A DNA stretch of 41,948 nt from a phage (GCA_025284135.1 GCA_025284135.1_3646.2), one strand, 5' to 3'. Counted from the stretch's first letter, positions 459-8,188 are shown. The notes: a model not told the origin generated them from the letters alone. Translations and numbers: made by a program.

Positions 459-1013
459 TTACTCCCCGCTGTCAATAGCAAAACTCATTGCAATACGGTA
501 TGCCTCTTCTAATGGTAAGAGTCTCCCCCACACATCCCAACCGACATCAAGCTGCCTGCCAAACAACTGTTGTGTGGTTCCGTGAGCATGACCGAACAGT
601 TGGACTGATCCGTGATGCTTTCTGTTCCACTTTGCAAATTGGTAATGGCTCATACAGATCAAATTCTTGTTGTGGCGAAGCTCGTAATAATCTACAACCT
701 CATGATAGAACTCTTTCATAATTCTGACAGTCGTCCTTGTGTCATGGTTGCCACGAACAAGAATAATATGTCCGTTCAACATATTTAGAATATCTGGAAG
801 TAAGTTGTTGATATTCTTATCATTAGTGCACGCAATATCCCCCAAGTGGAACACAGTGTCTGCAGGTGACACAACAGAGTTCCACTCGGCGATGATTCCC
901 GCATTCATACTGTCAAGATTGTGATCATACTGAGATCTGTGTTTTTGACATGAATCAAACTCCATGACCCGCTGGTGGAGAAAGTGTGTGTCGCTTGTTA
1001 CAAAGTATTTCAT
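459..1013 (-). CDS. calcineurin-like metallophosphoesterase (lambda-phosphatase-like), candidate polynucleotide 2',3'/3'-phosphatase
   Basis: Motifs SDTHF (DxH), HLGDIA (GD), GNHD, GHAHG; start chosen at internal MKYFVTSDTHF ATG (1011-1013), 8 nt after stop of upstream kinase gene. Confidence 0.7.
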   Translation of the reverse strand: MKYFVTSDTHFLHQRVMEFDSCQKHRSQYDHNLDSMNAGIIAEWNSVVSPADTVFHLGDIACTNDKNINNLLPDILNMLNGHIILVRGNHDTRTTVRIMKEFYHEVVDYYELRHNKNLICMSHYQFAKWNRKHHGSVQLFGHAHGTTQQLFGRQLDVGWDVWGRLLPLEEAYRIAMSFAIDSGE

Positions 1014-1020
1014 ACATTCC

Positions 1021-1428
1021 TCATTTAAGTTTAATGCAGTTTTTAAGTTGGCGTTCCATACGATCCACAACCTCGTCTGAAGCATGAATGCTTTTATTAC
1101 CGTGGCGGTTTTCAACCACGATTACGGTATAACTATACCCATAACTGATTGCCATGTCAATATATTTTTGCACATATTTTTCTTTTGTAAACGTATTACT
1201 TACCACGATACGGTCGTATCCCATACGCATCATATCTTCTACGTTATCTTTGCACCATTTTGCTGCAAGTGTGACTTTACTTGCATCCCAGTTGTAATTT
1301 CCATCATCGTCGTACCAGAACATGTCGTTCTCAAAATGTGGATACAGACCCTCTAAAGATAGCGCATTTGCCAGTGTTGATTTGCCAGACCCTGGTAGAC
1401 CACGCACGATATATAGCATTTTAGACAT
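1021..1428 (-). CDS. P-loop polynucleotide 5'-kinase-like protein (T4 Pnk kinase-domain-like)
   Basis: Walker A GLPGSGKST and IVVSNT block resembling T4 Pnk GCPGSGKST / IISDTN; start at MSKMLYIVRG (ATG 1426-1428) preceded by GGAGGGTCAC. Confidence 0.55.
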   Translation of the reverse strand: MSKMLYIVRGLPGSGKSTLANALSLEGLYPHFENDMFWYDDDGNYNWDASKVTLAAKWCKDNVEDMMRMGYDRIVVSNTFTKEKYVQKYIDMAISYGYSYTVIVVENRHGNKSIHASDEVVDRMERQLKNCIKLK

Positions 1429-1456
1429 AGTGACCCTCCGTTTTAATTTCAACGAT

Positions 1457-1485
1457 AGTATACCTAACTGTTTTGTTAATTTCAA
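1457..1485 (-). promoter_or_regulatory. sigma70-like promoter for minus-strand kinase/phosphatase operon (-35 TTGAAA, 17 nt, -10 TATACT)
   Basis: Reverse complement of 1457-1485 reads TTGAAATTAACAAAACAGTTAGGTATACT, about 30 nt upstream of ATG at 1428. Confidence 0.45.
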
Positions 1486-1528
1486 GTGTTGACACTAGGT
1501 TATTTGTGTGGCAGGATAGACTGACAAA

Positions 1529-2464
1529 ATGACAAATGAGGAACGTATGATGAAGTATTTTAATGCAGACGACCTAGTTGACAAAGGTCTTGTAACCAGC
1601 AGATATTACCCAGATCTCGGGTTAAAGATCTATAAATATGCTAGAAAAGTATTTTACAACAATTTATGGCATTTGTCCCCTCGTTTACTGGAGTGCCGAG
1701 GCATTGTTGTCGGGAATGAAGGAAATGTTGTGGCATGGCCATTCACAAAAGTGTTTAACTTGGGAGAAAACTCCACCAACCTACCGGACAGTAAACTTGT
1801 GACTGCGGTAGAGAAAAAGAACGGATTCCTCGGTGTGGTATCATCTCATAAAGGTGAACTATTGTTCTCAACAACCGGATCTCTTGATTCTCCATATTGT
1901 AACCTCGCAAAGGAAACCATCCAGGAGCAATGTGGTAATTTAGATCTTATCAAGAAGGTTATGGGCAATGAAAACATGACATTCATGTTTGAAATTTGTC
2001 ACCCTTCAGATCCGCATATTGTTCAGGAAGATCATGGCGCATATTTGATAGGTTGCAGATATAATGATTCTGGAATAATGCTACCAGAAGCAGCTTTAGA
2101 TGGGATTGCCAAATACCTTGGCGCAAAACGTCCTCACACTGTGCGTGAAATTCCGTTCAGCTATGCAAAAGAATTGGCTGCAGAAACAAGAGGTGAAGGG
2201 TATATGATTCGTAAGCCTTACTACCCTTATGATCTGCAGCTGAAGATCAAGTCTCCATACTATCTGGCACGGAAGGCCGTAATGAGGGGTAAAGCTTGGA
2301 AGATTTGGGATGATGATATCTTTAAACGTATTGACGAAGAGTTTTACGGCATGATAAACTTCATTCGTAGCAATTACACAGAAGATGTGTGGAACTGCCT
2401 CCTGGAGCAGGAACGCCGTGAGATACTTGACCACTATTTCCACAACGAGGACTATATGCAATGA
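1529..2464 (+). CDS. RNA ligase-like nucleotidyltransferase (ATP-dependent ligase superfamily)
   Basis: Motif I KKNG (KxNG), EGYMIRKP (motif IV-like), KIKSPYY (motif V-like); no OB/DNA-ligase C-domain; better RBS (GAGGAA) supports alternative start at 1547. Confidence 0.5.
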   Translation: MTNEERMMKYFNADDLVDKGLVTSRYYPDLGLKIYKYARKVFYNNLWHLSPRLLECRGIVVGNEGNVVAWPFTKVFNLGENSTNLPDSKLVTAVEKKNGFLGVVSSHKGELLFSTTGSLDSPYCNLAKETIQEQCGNLDLIKKVMGNENMTFMFEICHPSDPHIVQEDHGAYLIGCRYNDSGIMLPEAALDGIAKYLGAKRPHTVREIPFSYAKELAAETRGEGYMIRKPYYPYDLQLKIKSPYYLARKAVMRGKAWKIWDDDIFKRIDEEFYGMINFIRSNYTEDVWNCLLEQERREILDHYFHNEDYMQ

Positions 2465-2508
2465 AGAAGTGGAAAGTTCTTTTTAATCATTCAGCTTAAG
2501 GGGGCTGT

Positions 2509-3117
2509 ATGAAACTTGTGCATGGTGTTGGTATTAATGATGCAGACTATCCTGTCAGGGTTTTAGACAAGGATACTGGAAAGAGAATCATGTGTCCTTT
2601 TTATATGACATGGTCAAATATGCTAGGAAGGTGTTACCTTAAAAACAAGAAATTTGAAGCTTATGCTATGGTAGAAGTTTGTGAAGAATGGAAAATCTTC
2701 AGCAACTTCAAGCGTTGGATGGAAAAACAAGATTGGCGGGATAAATTTTTAGATAAAGATATCCTCTTTGAAAATAATCTTGTATACTGTCCAGAAGCGT
2801 GTATTTTTGTTCCCCGTGAAATAAACAACTTCTTTGTAGCAAGGGTGCCACAAAGAGGTGAGTGTTTGATGGGGGTAAGAAGAAAAGGCCCCTCTTTTGC
2901 TGCCTATTGCAAAGATGGGGTTAAGGACACGCGGGTTTATCTTGGAACCTTCCCCACGCAGATTGAAGCACATATGAGATACTTAGAATATAAACTGCAA
3001 CTTCTTAGAGACTTGATTGGAACTGTAGATGACAGTAGGTTGCTATTAGGATTACGAAGAATTGAGAATAAGATAGTTTTAGCTTTATCTTCAAAAACAC
3101 CGATAGAAAATTTTTAG
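2509..3117 (+). CDS. free-standing homing-endonuclease-like DNA-binding protein (AP2-type domain)
   Basis: W-x2-M-x2-RC ... EW motif common to phage HNH/AP2 endonuclease-like proteins, YLGTF AP2-like segment; RBS AAGGGGG. Confidence 0.45.
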   Translation: MKLVHGVGINDADYPVRVLDKDTGKRIMCPFYMTWSNMLGRCYLKNKKFEAYAMVEVCEEWKIFSNFKRWMEKQDWRDKFLDKDILFENNLVYCPEACIFVPREINNFFVARVPQRGECLMGVRRKGPSFAAYCKDGVKDTRVYLGTFPTQIEAHMRYLEYKLQLLRDLIGTVDDSRLLLGLRRIENKIVLALSSKTPIENF

Positions 3118-3125
3118 AGGCATGT

Positions 3126-3473
3126 ATGAAAGTTTGGATAGATGATTTGCGTAACCCAGCTGACTACGGACATGTAGATGCAATTTGGTTTAAAACATCA
3201 CAAGAGGCTATGGAGTTTCTCAATAATCCTGCTAAAATGTATCGAAGAGTGACAGAGTGGTTCTTTGACCACGATTTGGGTGAAGACTCTGATCAAGACG
3301 GATATGCTGTTTTATTGCGCCTGGAAGAGCTATTTGTATTTGGTAAGCCTCCTGTAGTTGACAACGTGAAGATTTTCGTGCATACTTCTAATCCATCAGC
3401 GGCTCGTAAATTCATGCTTGCAGCTGACTCGTTTAAAAAGTTTGGAATAGAGATTAAACAAAACATCTACTGA
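3126..3473 (+). CDS. hypothetical protein with WIDDxRxP / DHDLG / HTSNP motifs (possible receiver-like cyclic-phosphate-processing domain)
   Basis: 115-aa ORF, RBS AGAGG; three conserved-looking acidic/His motifs; 9 nt upstream of Sir2 gene. Confidence 0.35.
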   Translation: MKVWIDDLRNPADYGHVDAIWFKTSQEAMEFLNNPAKMYRRVTEWFFDHDLGEDSDQDGYAVLLRLEELFVFGKPPVVDNVKIFVHTSNPSAARKFMLAADSFKKFGIEIKQNIY

Positions 3474-3481
3474 GGGCACTT

Positions 3482-4243
3482 ATGCGACGACTGATTATTA
3501 TCTCCGGTGCTGGTTTGAGCGCTGAATCTGGTATTCCCACTTTCCGATCTGGTAGCACTGCAATGTGGGAGAATTTCAGCATCGATGAGGTGTGCAACAT
3601 CCACACCTTTGCCAAGAACTACTATAAGGTGCATGACTTTTACAATGCACGTCGTGTAGCTCTGGGCAGTGTTGATCCTAACCTTGCACATCTTCGGATC
3701 GCTGAGTGGTATTCCCGCTGGTCTGGTCGTGTGATCAACCTTACCACCAATGTAGATGATTTGCTGGAGCGTGCTGGTGTAAAACATGAAGATATTTTAC
3801 ATGTCCACGGGTATTTGCCTGAAATCACCTACGAAGATGCTGAAGGTAATGATGTAATTAAAAATATCGGATACACGGAGGTAGATACAGGCAAGTATAC
3901 CTGGGTTAAGCCCAATGTAGTGTTCTTCGGTGAGGTTGCTCCTAAGTATACAGACATGTATGACCTGTTGACATCTCTCACAAGCAATGATATGGTGATC
4001 CTGGTAGGTTGTTCTAACACAGTTATTAATTTTAACTGGGAATTGTTTCCTGCTACTTGTAAAGGCACAAAACTGCTGATTGTAAACAAGTATGATTCGC
4101 AGAGTGCAGATGGAAGTGGCATTTCACGTAGCGACCTTTATCAATATGAGGATCGCGGGATCCCTGTATGGTTTAACGGTGCTGTTGACGCTTTCTCTGA
4201 TAAAGTATTTATTGAAACTGTAGAAAACTTTATGGAACTTTAA
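3482..4243 (+). CDS. Sir2-family NAD-dependent protein (sirtuin-like) lacking zinc ribbon
   Basis: GAGLSAESGIPTFR Rossmann motif and HVHG catalytic His typical of Sir2/CobB; no CxxC...CxxC zinc module. Confidence 0.7.
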   Translation: MRRLIIISGAGLSAESGIPTFRSGSTAMWENFSIDEVCNIHTFAKNYYKVHDFYNARRVALGSVDPNLAHLRIAEWYSRWSGRVINLTTNVDDLLERAGVKHEDILHVHGYLPEITYEDAEGNDVIKNIGYTEVDTGKYTWVKPNVVFFGEVAPKYTDMYDLLTSLTSNDMVILVGCSNTVINFNWELFPATCKGTKLLIVNKYDSQSADGSGISRSDLYQYEDRGIPVWFNGAVDAFSDKVFIETVENFMEL

Positions 4244-4256
4244 AAGGAGACCTTTA

Positions 4257-4970
4257 ATGCTGAATACTAAACTGATCGACAACCTGGAAAAACTGTCTCA
4301 GCCTGAAAACTACCTTTGGTCTGCCAACTGGGTGGAAAACTGGAACCGTGTGGCAGCTAAGGTGAAAAAATCATACACACCATTCGAATTACAGCTTAGC
4401 TTCATTGAGGAAGAGTTCAATGAAGTTTTGGAAGAGCTGGAGAAAGGTGATGGTGGAGATCACTTGCTAAAAGAGGCCTGCGATCTTCATGTTGTCACAA
4501 GTTATGCCGCTTATCTTGTTAATGACAATCACGAAAAGTGGTCAAACCTGTTTGATAATCCACGAGGTATTAAGTTCAAGATTGGTGAGTTCTATGATAC
4601 ACTGATCGCTGCGAAAAACACCTCTAAGCAAAGAGCGTCTGCTTACCGCTTAGCAGAGTTGTCAACAGCTTTGCTGTTCCAGCTTCGCGGCGATGTGTGC
4701 GGGATGATGCGTAAGGTTCTCAAATCGAATGACAGCAAGTTTGCACGGGTCAACCATCTACGGTATTCACACGGTGCCAGTGCAGATATGCCTGCTGAAC
4801 AACTCATCGAGTTGGAGATTAAAGATCTTGAGCGACGCTTTGATGGTCGATATGAAGGTTTTGTTGCTAAGGAAGAATTCTACAACGGTAATAAAGTTAT
4901 CATATTCCTTGACAGTAAAGGTAAGATCATGAAGCCTTCAAGCTTCAAGGATGTAACAGAGTATATTTAA
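4257..4970 (+). CDS. putative MazG-like nucleoside triphosphate pyrophosphohydrolase
   Basis: EEEFNEVLEELEKGDGGDHLLKEACD resembles MazG EExxE...ExxD metal-binding helices; RBS AAAGGAGA. Confidence 0.35.
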   Translation: MLNTKLIDNLEKLSQPENYLWSANWVENWNRVAAKVKKSYTPFELQLSFIEEEFNEVLEELEKGDGGDHLLKEACDLHVVTSYAAYLVNDNHEKWSNLFDNPRGIKFKIGEFYDTLIAAKNTSKQRASAYRLAELSTALLFQLRGDVCGMMRKVLKSNDSKFARVNHLRYSHGASADMPAEQLIELEIKDLERRFDGRYEGFVAKEEFYNGNKVIIFLDSKGKIMKPSSFKDVTEYI

Positions 4971-4976
4971 CAACAT

Positions 4977-5000
4977 AGCCGGGATCACCCGGCTTTACTT
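4977..5000 (+). terminator. rho-independent terminator-like hairpin
   Basis: AGCCGGG-atca-CCCGGCT followed by TTACTT, immediately after stop at 4970. Confidence 0.5.
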
Positions 5001-5012
5001 GTTGTGGAAAGT

Positions 5013-5342
5013 ATGCAAGTGAGGCAGATAGTTATGTACAAGCACTCTAGAGATCTTGAAAACGATGCTGTGTTTGGGGATCAGATGAAAGAGTTGGTTA
5101 AACTCATAGGCAGGATAGAGGATAAGTTTGACACTAAAATCTACATCGATAGCAAGATCTTCAACCACAAAATATGGACAAATCTGTGTGTTGGACTACA
5201 TGGAGATAAAGATGTTGTAAATTTAGTTGTAATTAAGTTCATAGTGTGGCAGAATAAAACTATAAATTATTACGATCCACACCTGCTTGTTTACCCGATA
5301 AAAGACCTATTAGATAAGGAGGACTGCAATGCCGTTATTTAA
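5013..5342 (+). CDS. hypothetical protein
   Basis: ORF 5004..5342; first ATG at 5013; weak RBS; start uncertain (5034 also possible). Confidence 0.4.
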   Translation: MQVRQIVMYKHSRDLENDAVFGDQMKELVKLIGRIEDKFDTKIYIDSKIFNHKIWTNLCVGLHGDKDVVNLVVIKFIVWQNKTINYYDPHLLVYPIKDLLDKEDCNAVI

Positions 5343-5598
5343 TCTTGCTAAACCTGTAGAAGCACACCAGTTTGACGGAAGCTCTTCATCAGTATCTGAT
5401 CTGCAACGGTGGATTGATACAGGCGTGTTTACATCGTCACCTGTTCGGACCAGAGATCTTCGTCGTATGTGTGAGCTTGTAGAGCCATTTGGTAACCTAG
5501 TCTTGTACCAGGGTGATTGGCTTGTTGATTTTATGGGGGACTGGTTGGTAATGAGTAAAGAAGAGATGTTTAAAATTTTTAAGGAAGAGGTAGAGTAA
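5329..5598 (+). CDS. hypothetical protein
   Basis: 89-aa ORF with RBS TAAGGAGGA 6 nt upstream of ATG. Confidence 0.45.
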   Translation: MPLFNLAKPVEAHQFDGSSSSVSDLQRWIDTGVFTSSPVRTRDLRRMCELVEPFGNLVLYQGDWLVDFMGDWLVMSKEEMFKIFKEEVE

Positions 5599-6881
5599 TG
5601 CATCAAATCAAAACAACACTGTACGCACTGAACAAAGATGGCAGCTACCAACAGTGGAAAGTATTCACGGATGGTGATAAGGTTATCGTAGAGTTTGGCA
5701 AGCTTGATGGTAAACTGCAATACAAAGAGACGATCTGCACACCTAAGAACGTAGGTCGTGCCAACGAGACTACAGCTGAGCAACAGGCCGAGCTTGAGGC
5801 TATCAGTAAGTGGGAAAAACAAGTCCGTCTGGGGTATGTTGAAAACATGGAAGATTGCGAGCAGGGTGTTGACCTTTTACCCATGCTGGTGCATGACTAT
5901 CTGAAGCGTGGCAAGGCACTTAAATTACCTTGCTGGATCTTGCGTAAGTTAGATGGCCTTCGTCTGCTTGTTGTTTTCCAAAATGGTGAGCCTAAATTTA
6001 TTTCCCGTGGTAATAAGTCCTACCCTATTCAAGGAAAGCTTTTAGAGCAACTTCGTTCTTTCCATTCTACCACTGGGATTAAACAACTTGATGGGGAACT
6101 ATACATTCATGGTCTTCCTTTGCAGAAAATAGTGTCTCTTGCTAAACGGTGGCGCACACAGGAAGAGATTCAGGCCGAGATCGATAAAGACTATGAGGCA
6201 GATAAAAAACGCCGTCATGCCGCAATTAAGGCAGGCTTATCAACATACAAAAACTTCAACAAGGTAGATATTCCTGTCAATGTTGAGCCTGTTCGTGATG
6301 ATTTGCGTTACGGTGGGTACTGTAGCTACGATCTGGAGTATCACATTTTTGATATTCCTAGCGACAAGGTGTGGTGGGATCCAGAAACAGAGTCTGGACG
6401 CTGCAAGGATCTTATGGATGCAGAGGATACCGTTACCACTCTGATGCTTGACCATATCAAGGTTGTTGACGCAGAGCTTGCGTACACAGTTGATCATTGC
6501 GAAGAATCTGTTGGTATATTCATGTCCGAAGGATATGAAGGTACCATTATGCGTAACTTCTGTGGTAAATATGAGTACGGTCAGCGAACATCTGAAGCAT
6601 TGAAATGGAAAAAGTTCAACGACGCAGAGGTGAAAGTTATTGACGTTGAGAAAGATAAGAATGATGAAGGTGTTCTTATCTGTGTTGACAAGGAAGGTAT
6701 TGTTGTTAAAATGAAAATGAAAGGTACGCACGAGGAGCGTAGCTATGACAGAATGCAGGAAATGATCGGCAAGTTTGTCACCTTCAAATATCAAGCAAGG
6801 ACAGAAGACAACAACTACCAATTCCCTGTCGGTATCTGCGTCCGAAATGTTAACCCAGACACTTGGGAGGTGCTGGAATAA
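5598..6881 (+). CDS. ATP-dependent DNA ligase
   Basis: Motif I KLDGLR (adenylation lysine), 427 aa, stop/start overlap with upstream gene. Confidence 0.85.
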   Translation: MHQIKTTLYALNKDGSYQQWKVFTDGDKVIVEFGKLDGKLQYKETICTPKNVGRANETTAEQQAELEAISKWEKQVRLGYVENMEDCEQGVDLLPMLVHDYLKRGKALKLPCWILRKLDGLRLLVVFQNGEPKFISRGNKSYPIQGKLLEQLRSFHSTTGIKQLDGELYIHGLPLQKIVSLAKRWRTQEEIQAEIDKDYEADKKRRHAAIKAGLSTYKNFNKVDIPVNVEPVRDDLRYGGYCSYDLEYHIFDIPSDKVWWDPETESGRCKDLMDAEDTVTTLMLDHIKVVDAELAYTVDHCEESVGIFMSEGYEGTIMRNFCGKYEYGQRTSEALKWKKFNDAEVKVIDVEKDKNDEGVLICVDKEGIVVKMKMKGTHEERSYDRMQEMIGKFVTFKYQARTEDNNYQFPVGICVRNVNPDTWEVLE

Positions 6882-7023: not shown

Positions 7024-7512
7024 ATGAAACTTGATAAAAATGTTCAACGAAAGGCTTTCTTGGATATGATCGCATATTCGGAAGGCACAGATAATGGTAG
7101 ACAACCTACCAAGGATCGGGGATACGATGTCATAGTCGGAGGCAAGCTGTTCAGCGATTACAGCAAGCATCCCGGTGTTTACGTTAAGCTAAATGCTAAA
7201 CTTACCTCCTCCGCTGCTGGGCGTTACCAGGTTTTGGAGAAGTTTGCTAAACACTACATGGAACAGCTAGGATTGCCAGATTTTGGCCCTGCCAGTCAGG
7301 ACAAGATTGCGTTGCAACTGATCCGTGAGTGTAAGGCGCTCGATGATATTGATGAAGGTCGTATCCACCAGGCCATTTATAAATGCCGCAGCCGCTGGGC
7401 AAGCTTCCCACCACCGCCGGGGGCTGGAAAGCTGTACAATCAGCGAGCAGAAAGTATAGACAAGATGCTGGATGTCTTTAAGAAGGCAGGTGGAGTTGTT
7501 ACAGATGAGTAA
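7024..7512 (+). CDS. endolysin, lambda R-like lytic transglycosylase
   Basis: QRKAFLDMIAYSEGTDNGRQPTKDRGYDVIVGG...AAGRYQ closely parallels phage lambda R N-terminus as recalled. Confidence 0.85.
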   Translation: MKLDKNVQRKAFLDMIAYSEGTDNGRQPTKDRGYDVIVGGKLFSDYSKHPGVYVKLNAKLTSSAAGRYQVLEKFAKHYMEQLGLPDFGPASQDKIALQLIRECKALDDIDEGRIHQAIYKCRSRWASFPPPPGAGKLYNQRAESIDKMLDVFKKAGGVVTDE

Positions 7513-8188
7513 CGGGATTGACTGGTGGAGTGTCTTTAGATATGATACAGGCACTGGAAGGTTGTTTTGGAAGTCCCCACCAAAAAACAAACCCCAACTA
7601 ATGGGAAAGGAGGCTGGATGTACTAACATGGACGGGTACAGGGATATAATCTATCGTGGCGTGCATTACTACAGGCATAGATTGGTTTGGGAGATGCATT
7701 ATGGGCCCATCCCAGAAGGGTACGAAGTTGATCACATAAAGCCACTTTTCTATTCCGATGGTGTTGCTGATGACAGGATAGAAAACCTGCAACTGTTAAC
7801 ACCAGAAGAAAACGCAAAAAAGGCGGCAGATGACGGATGCCTGGCACGCAAGATACCTAAATCCAACACTGGACACTTGGGTGTATATTTTCATGCTAGA
7901 ACTGGAAGGTATGCTGCTTTTGGTAAGGTAGGTCATTACTATAAGAAAGACCTAGGAGAATACGATACCTTAGAAGAGGCCATTGCTGCTCAAAAGTCTT
8001 TTGAAAGTGGCACGTTTGTCAGGGAATATCGTGGACAGCCTTTAGGGAGGGATAAATCTAGAGGTGTCAGATTTGAAGCAGATAGGGGCAAATGGAAAGT
8101 AACTTTCAGAGGAAAAACGTTAGGCAGGTTTGACACCAAAGAGTCTGCTGAAGCGTGTTACGCAAAGGCTCTTACTGAAAGCTTGTAA
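7505..8188 (+). CDS. HNH homing endonuclease with two AP2-type DNA-binding domains
   Basis: HRLVWEMHYGPIPEGYEVDHI...NLQLLTPEEN HNH core; two GVYF/GVRF...LGxFxTxEEA AP2-like repeats; ATG overlaps endolysin stop. Confidence 0.75.
   Translation: MSNGIDWWSVFRYDTGTGRLFWKSPPKNKPQLMGKEAGCTNMDGYRDIIYRGVHYYRHRLVWEMHYGPIPEGYEVDHIKPLFYSDGVADDRIENLQLLTPEENAKKAADDGCLARKIPKSNTGHLGVYFHARTGRYAAFGKVGHYYKKDLGEYDTLEEAIAAQKSFESGTFVREYRGQPLGRDKSRGVRFEADRGKWKVTFRGKTLGRFDTKESAEACYAKALTESL

Follow-up and report, generated by a model that had tools for sequence, protein, structure and literature searches.

Do neighbouring phage genes for a polynucleotide kinase, a phosphoesterase, an RNA ligase and a sirtuin form a single RNA repair pathway with a step that consumes nicotinamide adenine dinucleotide (NAD), and is such a combination new? 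The question is raised by positions 459-4970 of a 41,948-nucleotide stretch of phage DNA (GCA_025284135.1_3646.2), the whole of which is called the window below. Judged by its matches in GenBank, the window comes from a Vequintavirus, an rV5-like Escherichia coli phage. We conclude that the region is probably a conserved phage cassette for RNA healing and sealing in its Vequintavirus form, with a putative NAD branch as published.

The cassette and its proposed NAD-dependent role are already known: Iyer, Burroughs, Anantharaman and Aravind (Viruses 2022;14:1977, PMC9503650, section 3.7.3, Fig. 5f) described this neighbourhood as 'prototyped by Escherichia phage V5', the phage from which the name Vequintavirus derives. 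They proposed that the sirtuin acts like KptA/Tpt1 on RNA 2'-phosphates and that accessory enzymes open the cyclic phosphate or process ADP-ribose cyclic phosphate (ADPr>P), and reported that jumbo phages place a Nudix pyrophosphatase in an analogous position by the sirtuin and a cREC (cyclic-phosphate-processing receiver-like) protein. All six genes of the published neighbourhood lie within 4.5 kb in the window. The two agree in phage genus, in gene set (sirtuin, T4-like tRNA ligase, cREC, nucleotide kinase, MazG-superfamily pyrophosphatase and calcineurin-like phosphoesterase) and in the proposed role, an NAD-dependent processing of 2'/cyclic phosphates on RNA analogous to that by KptA, and they differ in nothing essential; the window phage adds an HNH insertion and a chimeric cREC. 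A first-pass annotation, made from the sequence of the window alone, had suggested an undescribed counter-defence module. This could not be upheld, given the publication for phage V5 and the existing annotation of the genes in GenBank relatives (as phosphoesterase, ATPase or polynucleotide kinase, RNA ligase, Sir2 and nucleotide pyrophosphohydrolase). Its further idea, the NAD-dependent processing of a 2'-phosphate, is a rediscovery, because the same prediction had been published for this phage genus (Iyer et al. 2022).

Gene content of the locus

We assigned domains by Pfam, PHROG and NCBIfam profile searches of the window proteins. In a six-frame list of open reading frames (ORFs), the locus consists of two minus-strand genes and a row of plus-strand genes that diverges from them:

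459-1013, minus strand: calcineurin-type metallophosphoesterase, 184 residues (Pfam Metallophos 27.5 bits, cut-off 21.5; PHROG 547 'phosphoesterase' 1e-52)
1021-1428, minus strand: P-loop polynucleotide 5'-kinase-like protein, 135 residues (AAA_33 6e-10; PHROG 'polynucleotide kinase' 5e-10)
1429-1528: divergent intergenic spacer of ~100 bp between kinase and ligase, with a sigma-70-like site on the minus strand
1529-2464, plus strand: T4 Rnl1-family ATP-dependent RNA ligase, 311 residues (RNA_lig_T4_1 9e-15; PHROG 562 5e-66)
2509-3117, plus strand: free-standing HNH homing endonuclease, 202 residues (PHROG 953 'HNH endonuclease' 7e-70)
3126-3473, plus strand: cREC protein, 115 residues (Pfam PF20274 2e-16)
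3482-4243, plus strand: Zn-less class III-like sirtuin, 253 residues (Pfam SIR2 7e-28)
4257-4970, plus strand: all-alpha NTP pyrophosphatase superfamily ('MazG-like') protein, 237 residues (PHROG 671 'nucleotide pyrophosphohydrolase' 5e-22)
4977-4994: GC-rich hairpin behind the last gene of the plus-strand unit, terminator-like on either strand (7-bp stem with 6 G-C pairs, then a T-rich tail)

All genes and motifs that the first-pass annotation had listed at 459-4970 are present, and the profile searches confirmed each domain, including its small DD/DHDLG/HTSNP protein (cREC, PF20274), its Sir2-like protein (SIR2) and its MazG-like protein (PHROG 671). The list was sound for the genes it named and overlooked the 202-residue HNH ORF at 2509-3117.

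The kinase, phosphoesterase and RNA ligase

We consider it likely, from domain matches and conserved catalytic residues, that the kinase, phosphoesterase and ligase serve in RNA repair. Single-sequence structure searches of the ligase and the kinase were uninformative, and family profiles were needed. The kinase carries the P-loop G10-LPGSGKST-18, and a profile of 11 relatives found as its best PDB matches Capnocytophaga Pnkp1 (4xrp, 3e-6), T4 Pnk (1ltq, 1e-5) and C. thermocellum Pnk (4gp6, 1e-5), with a Rhizopus kinase also among the best solved matches. The top solved relatives are thus RNA-repair polynucleotide kinases only, in agreement with the earlier description of a Pnk-like P-loop kinase. 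Residue D35 is invariant and aligns with D35 of T4 Pnk, the catalytic Asp general base; position 38 is Trp, whereas T4 Pnk has there R38, which together with R126 binds the phosphoacceptor and the NTP, and an invariant R108 lies in the motif ENRHGN.

The phosphoesterase had been called calcineurin-type, and its Metallophos score above the cut-off and invariant metal motifs bear this out. Across 10 relatives, its motifs SDTHF, HLGD, GNHD and GHAHG retain all metal ligands (invariant D8/H10, G58-D59, G88-N89-H90-D91, H123 and G141-H142-x-H144). The only solved match of the family profile was Aquifex aq_1665 (1xm7, 3e-15), an uncharacterised protein; among solved structures, neither the single sequence nor the profile matched the CthPnkp/lambda-Pase phosphatase branch, and the model for the ligase-associated PdeM gave a faint match (7e-4), far below its cut-off. 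We predict from these motifs that the phosphoesterase is an end-healing enzyme for 2',3'-cyclic or 3'-(2'-)phosphates.

The ligase exceeds the Pfam cut-off for RNA_lig_T4_1 (PF09511; 55.5 bits vs 28.3), which places it, as the earlier description of an RNA-ligase-like nucleotidyltransferase would have it, in the Rnl1 family. A profile of 39 relatives had T4 Rnl1 as its sole solved match (2c5u, 9do4; 6e-12), and residues R57, K74, F76, K96, G99, E155, E223, G224, K239, K241 and Y245 are invariant in these relatives; they are the counterparts of Y246 and of R54, K75, F77, K99, G102, E159, E227, G228, K240 and K242 in T4 Rnl1, the latter ten representing the nucleotidyl-transferase motifs I, III, IV and V and the N-terminal residues specific to Rnl1. 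Departures from T4 Rnl1 are D101, replaced by N98 (hence the KxNG form of motif I, EKKNG), and K119, replaced by T116. The ligase does not reach the equivalog model for T4 RnlA (TIGR02308; 38.2 bits vs a cut-off of 242). The KxNG form of motif I resembles that of Trl1, and the first-pass annotation had taken it as the mark of a tRNA-ligase (Trl1)-type enzyme; this candidate identity was ruled out, as the ligase profile is closest to T4 Rnl1 and matched no Trl1 structure.

Relation to known repair systems and the proposed pathway

Like the T4 Pnkp and Rnl1 system, which acts against the anticodon nuclease PrrC, the cassette joins a kinase, a phosphatase for 3' ends and a ligase in one logic, with a ligase of the same Rnl1 family and a P-loop kinase of the same type, its catalytic Asp aligned. 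In the window, by contrast, kinase and phosphatase are separate proteins, the phosphatase is calcineurin-type whereas that of T4 is of the HAD/DxDxT type, and the ligase has KxNG rather than KxDG as motif I and no recognisable T4-type C-terminal tRNA-binding domain. The window cassette also adds cREC, sirtuin and MazG-like genes, and it has no known cognate host nuclease. The bacterial Pnkp/Hen1 and Pnkp1-Rnl-Hen1 systems of Clostridium thermocellum and Capnocytophaga gingivalis likewise combine a P-loop kinase, a dinuclear metallophosphoesterase and an ATP-dependent RNA ligase, and are the source of the best solved relatives of the kinase profile. They form one fused polypeptide with a Hen1 2'-O-methyltransferase, whereas the window proteins are separate and lack Hen1, and the window phosphoesterase is nearest to aq_1665 and not to the Pnkp/lambda-phosphatase branch. 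Since the phosphatase of bacterial Pnkp already has a calcineurin-type fold (PMC2190708), a separate calcineurin-type phosphatase is not a new design. The fungal and plant Trl1 and Tpt1 (KptA) pathway differs from the cassette in several ways: the window ligase is Rnl1-like by profile, its NAD enzyme has the sirtuin fold where Tpt1 has the ADP-ribosyltransferase (ART) fold, and the putative cyclic phosphodiesterase is cREC in the window and a 2H enzyme in the Trl1 pathway.

In the pathway that we infer, in its enzymatic activities, its substrate and its NAD step alike, the P-loop kinase (1021-1428) would phosphorylate the 5'-OH end, the phosphoesterase (459-1013) would open and remove the 2',3'-cyclic or 3'-phosphate, and the Rnl1-family ligase (1529-2464) would adenylate the 5'-phosphate and seal the break. 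The three proteins would thus be the T4 Pnkp/Rnl1 pathway in function, with the activities on separate polypeptides. The comparison itself establishes the domain identities, the conserved catalytic residues and the linkage of the genes. The targets would most plausibly be tRNAs whose anticodon loop has been cleaved by abortive-infection nucleases of the host. In the NAD branch, following the proposal of Iyer et al. 2022, the sirtuin would act in a KptA/Tpt1-like manner on an RNA 2'-phosphate, and the pyrophosphatase would break down the ADP-ribose derivative.

The sirtuin

Our search found 949 homologues of the sirtuin, the nearest of which form a phage clade. The motifs GAGxS, TNVD, H109-G110, FFGE, GxS, N202 and FYNARR are invariant in a 54-sequence alignment, and no clade member in this alignment has Zn-binding cysteines between HG and FGE. 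The AlphaFold2 model (mean predicted local distance difference test score, pLDDT, 89.7) has a three-stranded sheet in place of the Cys4 zinc module. The best Foldseek match of the model is E. coli CobB (3e-19, 27% identity), followed by SIRT5 and Af1 Sir2. With CobB and human SIRT5 the protein shares the GAGxS, NxD, HG and FGE motifs and the Tyr/Arg pocket of FYNARR; such a Tyr-x-x-Arg is the acidic-acyl pocket of SIRT5 and CobB. It differs from them in lacking the four Zn cysteines, in falling below the cut-offs of the NCBIfam 'NAD-dependent protein deacylase' models, which are its nearest (122.6 vs 243), and in belonging to a phage-restricted clade linked to RNA-end-processing genes. Apart from the lost zinc ligands, its sequence is indistinguishable from that of a functional deacylase.

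No ADP-ribosyltransferase fold or homology to Tpt1 was found in the sirtuin, which has the sirtuin fold instead. The chemistry of sirtuins and of Tpt1 runs in parallel: a nucleophilic oxygen attacks C1'' of NAD, and the 2''-OH of ADP-ribose then attacks. This parallel makes plausible the published 2'-phosphate idea, which was drawn from genomic context. The steps of the Tpt1 reaction are given in PMC11417386. That the sirtuin works as an analogue of the 2'-phosphotransferase seems doubtful to us, and the full form of the idea, in which it would be no protein deacylase but an RNA 2'-phosphotransferase and a non-homologous replacement of Tpt1/KptA, we hold to be unlikely. If true, it would be the first sirtuin with a nucleic-acid phosphate substrate, and Vequintaviruses would own a yeast-type (2'-phosphate) tRNA repair route beside the T4-type route. 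As a prediction the idea is already in print, so that only a demonstration would be novel.

The MazG-like protein

The MazG-like protein of the window has no Pfam match itself; of 50 relatives, 36 match PRA-PH (PF01503) and 11 match MazG. It belongs to a small family of 16 clusters at 90% identity, with 163 representatives found at E <= 1e-3. The protein is a helical bundle with conserved EExxE...ExxD metal-binding motifs and an extra C-terminal beta domain. Its sequence profile found no solved relative. Its model (pLDDT 78.9) is closest to dimeric dUTPases, a match at the level of the fold only (8-15% identity); agreement from Foldseek is weak, its best matches too being phage dimeric dUTPases.

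Gene neighbourhood across phages

We compared 64 viral-contig loci that encode the sirtuin clade, together with reference loci, using family models derived from the window proteins to search their ORFs. The clade comprises 26 groups at 80% identity. In 6 of the 26 (Vequintavirus, Mydovirus-like and Hena1-like), we observed the block phosphoesterase-ligase-(cREC)-kinase-sirtuin-DNA ligase-MazG despite rearrangement, the kinase-phosphoesterase pair being inverted in the Vequintavirus block. The first-pass annotation had named neighbourhood conservation as a check, and the genes do co-occur in several phage lineages in spite of such rearrangements. In T5-like groups the sirtuin is instead linked to HAD_SAK_2 (4e-20), an RNA-repair 'Swiss-army-knife' HAD phosphatase, and Phapecoctavirus-like sirtuin groups have neither the repair block nor the linkage to HAD_SAK_2. 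The recurrence of the sirtuin beside RNA-end enzymes of different folds supports the published model.

Two of these lineages carry further genes beside the cassette. In Mydovirus-like loci (Klebsiella phage KpS8 group), a 559-residue NAPRTase-family gene and a 266-residue gene resembling phosphoribosyl pyrophosphate (PRPP) synthetase lie 5 kb upstream of the cassette (L003/L004 1-1133), and a NADAR gene lies 5 kb downstream (L003/L004 12023-12720), which suggests an NAD-centred island. The NAPRTase/PRPP-synthetase-like pair is one that we take to resemble the NARP1 NAD-reconstitution pathway. In Erwinia phage Hena1-like loci (L049 9302-9790; also L050 and L058), cREC is missing and a conserved 162-residue ORF lies between kinase and sirtuin; it has no Pfam match and matches PHROGs of unknown function only, and pairwise BLASTP against NADAR gave an E of 0.01.

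Weighing the pathway against its alternatives

Several observations weigh against a single repair cassette with an NAD branch. On the side of the sirtuin, T5 (NC_005859) encodes a member of the same clade (57% identical, at ~56.4 kb) with HAD_SAK_2 ~1 kb downstream, and homologues of the ligase, the kinase, cREC and the MazG-like protein are lacking throughout the unique T5 genome, which encodes only a distantly related phosphoesterase. Phapecoctavirus ECO340P2 has the sirtuin with no recognisable RNA-repair gene within 6 kb, and Phapecoctavirus SKA64 has the block cREC-phosphoesterase-ligase-kinase-DNA ligase-pyrophosphatase with no sirtuin in it. Since sirtuin and ligase can thus occur apart, a strictly Tpt1-like role after ligation loses support. 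Fairly close kinship among the lineages with full linkage also means that their synteny reflects inheritance in part, and not selection. The sirtuin family is acidic (median isoelectric point 5.1), which is atypical of an RNA-binding enzyme, and it keeps all hallmarks of class III deacylases, including the FYNARR pocket, being most like CobB and SIRT5. Moreover, kinase, phosphoesterase and Rnl1-type ligase are complete and would leave no 2'-phosphate, so that the sirtuin would not be needed; T4 Pnkp and Rnl1 can replace yeast Trl1 and bypass Tpt1. Among the other proteins, the last 66 residues of the ligase have no detectable similarity to the tRNA-binding domain of T4 Rnl1, the profile alignment ending at T4 residue 250; the MazG-like model is structurally closest to dimeric dUTPases; and in Mydovirus-like phages its gene lies beyond the DNA ligase and may belong to DNA metabolism. 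Literature searches for experimental work on phage sirtuins, Vequintavirus RNA repair and cREC found two surveys by the Aravind group and nothing further. The NAD-dependent 2'-phosphate step has its basis in gene context, and the evidence from the sirtuin pocket, T5 and Phapecoctavirus weakens it.

Much of this evidence would fit a locus made of two unrelated modules, the RNA-repair trio and a sirtuin that shares its early/middle operon and acts as a CobB-like lysine deacylase (desuccinylase or deacetylase) or protein ADP-ribosyltransferase to remodel host or phage proteins, a reading that we regard as plausible but tentative. It accounts for the structural proximity to CobB and SIRT5, the invariant Tyr-x-x-Arg pocket, FGE loop and catalytic His, the deacylase models as nearest (though below their cut-offs), the acidity of the family, the T5 sirtuin that occurs without RNA ligase, kinase and cREC, and the Phapecoctavirus sirtuin away from the repair cassette. 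Against it, the sirtuin has lost the Zn cysteines retained by canonical deacylases; it has no known acyl-protein target; and in three lineages the sirtuin stands beside RNA-end-processing genes of different folds (Rnl1/cREC/kinase; HAD_SAK_2), which is hard to ascribe to chance alone. For the MazG-like protein in particular, the dUTPase-like model and the lie of its gene beyond the DNA ligase outside Vequintavirus make a house-cleaning or dUTPase role a serious alternative to the clean-up of an ADP-ribose derivative. Somewhat less likely than not is that it is a dUTPase-type or house-cleaning (d)NTP pyrophosphatase and goes with the DNA-metabolism genes next to it, which encode DNA ligase, exonucleases, thymidylate synthase and ribonucleotide reductases, rather than with RNA repair or the clean-up of ADP-ribose. 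The Foldseek matches agree with this, as does the position of the gene in Mydovirus-like, Hena1-like and Phapecoctavirus genomes, which have it downstream of the DNA ligase at 2-3 kb from the sirtuin; in the window, nucleotide-metabolism genes follow, and the corresponding 42-kb stretch of a relative has no annotated dUTPase. Conversely, the resemblance is confined to the fold, with no solved relative for the sequence profile; relatives match the HisE/PRA-PH and MazG models and no dUTPase model; the Vequintavirus gene directly follows the sirtuin and has the terminator-like hairpin behind it; and a Nudix pyrophosphatase occupies the analogous place by sirtuin and cREC in jumbo phages (Iyer et al. 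2022).

The trio itself could be read in two other ways. Kinase and phosphoesterase might heal nicked DNA with 5'-OH and 3'-phosphate ends so that the conserved ATP-dependent DNA ligase (5598-6881) can seal it, the cassette then serving mainly in DNA-nick repair. In favour of this, both DNA and RNA are substrates of T4 Pnk, the DNA ligase belongs to the conserved block in every lineage with the cassette, and the phosphoesterase has its faint match to PdeM; but an Rnl1-family RNA ligase is always present with kinase and phosphoesterase, the nearest solved relatives of the kinase come from RNA-repair systems, and the literature links the contexts of cREC and HAD_SAK to RNA, which together make DNA-nick repair improbable. 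Very improbable indeed is that the 'RNA ligase' is mainly a tail-fibre attachment catalyst like T4 gp63, with unrelated neighbours: many GenBank records and PHROG 562 bear the name 'RNA ligase and tail fiber protein attachment catalyst', but that name was inherited from T4 gp63, all nucleotidyl-transferase catalytic residues of the ligase are invariant, and its gene stands among early/middle nucleic-acid enzymes and not among tail genes.

If the published model of a healing-and-sealing cassette with an NAD branch is true, large virulent coliphages mend defence-cut tRNAs by a second, NAD-consuming way, and the sirtuin fold gains a new class of substrate. Both points would matter for phage host range and for selecting phages for therapy; Vequintaviruses are frequent members of phage cocktails. 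To that model the present comparison adds that the sirtuin may act independently of the ligase, as suggested by the T5 sirtuin without a ligase and by the intact CobB-like pocket, and that the 'MazG' may be a dUTPase-like enzyme.

cREC and the HNH insertion

The cREC protein scores 60.8 bits against Pfam PF20274 (cut-off 27) and bears the motifs DD, DHDLG and HTSNP, with D6, D7, D48, D50, H86, S88, N89, P90 and K95 invariant in 8 relatives. The domain was defined in 2021 by the Aravind group and is called 'experimentally uncharacterized' in the literature, where its cyclic-phosphate hydrolase activity is predicted only.

The HNH ORF at 2509-3117 sits exactly at the overlap of ligase stop and cREC start and is absent from all 118 Vequintavirus records described below; the part of the query left uncovered in these relatives (19%) corresponds to the HNH ORF and the first ~200 nt of cREC. 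Positions 2466-3328, which comprise the HNH gene and the 5' part of cREC (3126-3328), share 87.6% identity with Phapecoctavirus SKA64, in which this HNH gene likewise precedes a cREC gene. In alignment, the window cREC proves chimeric, with residues 1-65 of SKA64 type and residues 73-115 of Vequintavirus type. The SKA64-like HNH segment and the chimeric cREC together indicate homing with co-conversion between phage subfamilies. The 202-residue ORF was rejected as a member of the repair system, being a strain-specific HNH homing endonuclease that is absent from close relatives.

Conservation, transcription and surroundings

By megablast, the region matched 125 GenBank phage records, of which 118 were covered by one match of 90-99% identity over 80% or more of the query; all of these are Vequintavirus coliphages, and the carriers include JES2013, FFH2, Murica, V5 and BASEL phages such as Bas59 EduardKellenberger. 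The domain matches given above are far beyond chance. Among the records, 18 labelled 'Campylobacter phage' (MG0656xx; host C. jejuni) are 97-98% identical to the region and look like mislabelled or contaminant genomes.

Kinase and phosphoesterase form a common minus-strand unit, the kinase lying 7 nt upstream of the phosphoesterase. The metallophosphoesterase ORF is open to 1115 (TTG start), the conserved ATG start being at 1013; the RNA ligase has an alternative start at 1547 with GAGGA just before it. The first-pass annotation had proposed a divergent operon with a shared promoter. The divergence is evident, but the shared promoter was not borne out: the spacer between kinase and ligase has a sigma-70-like site on the minus strand (1485-1457, 10 of 12 matches), while a scan of its plus strand found a lone TTGACA (1489-1494) with no good -10 and no convincing promoter for the ligase operon.

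Scans of the whole window for tRNAs and against Rfam gave no match, so that the window encodes no RNA substrate or regulator. In Vequintavirus relatives, the kinase, phosphoesterase and helix-turn-helix genes of the minus strand run in the same direction as a cluster of tRNA genes (Pro, Ile/Met, Thr, Lys, Tyr, Arg) ~3 kb on (loci L001 546-1082 and L002 252-1063), which falls beyond the left side of the window. The kinase-phosphoesterase unit thus reads towards the tRNA cluster, placing tRNA supply and putative tRNA repair next to each other.

Downstream of the MazG-like gene, positions 5004-6881 hold two small ORFs (112 and 89 residues; PHROGs 7684 and 14585, function unknown) and the ATP-dependent DNA ligase (5598-6881); these two ORFs and the DNA ligase accompany the RNA-repair genes in every cassette-bearing lineage. 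Further on, just past the endolysin ORF (7024-7512), the plus strand carries a second homing-endonuclease-like ORF of 238 residues (7472-8188) with the HNH-type motif EVDHIKPL...ENLQLLTPEEN, and in relatives the surroundings of the endolysin gene contain homing endonucleases at varying positions.

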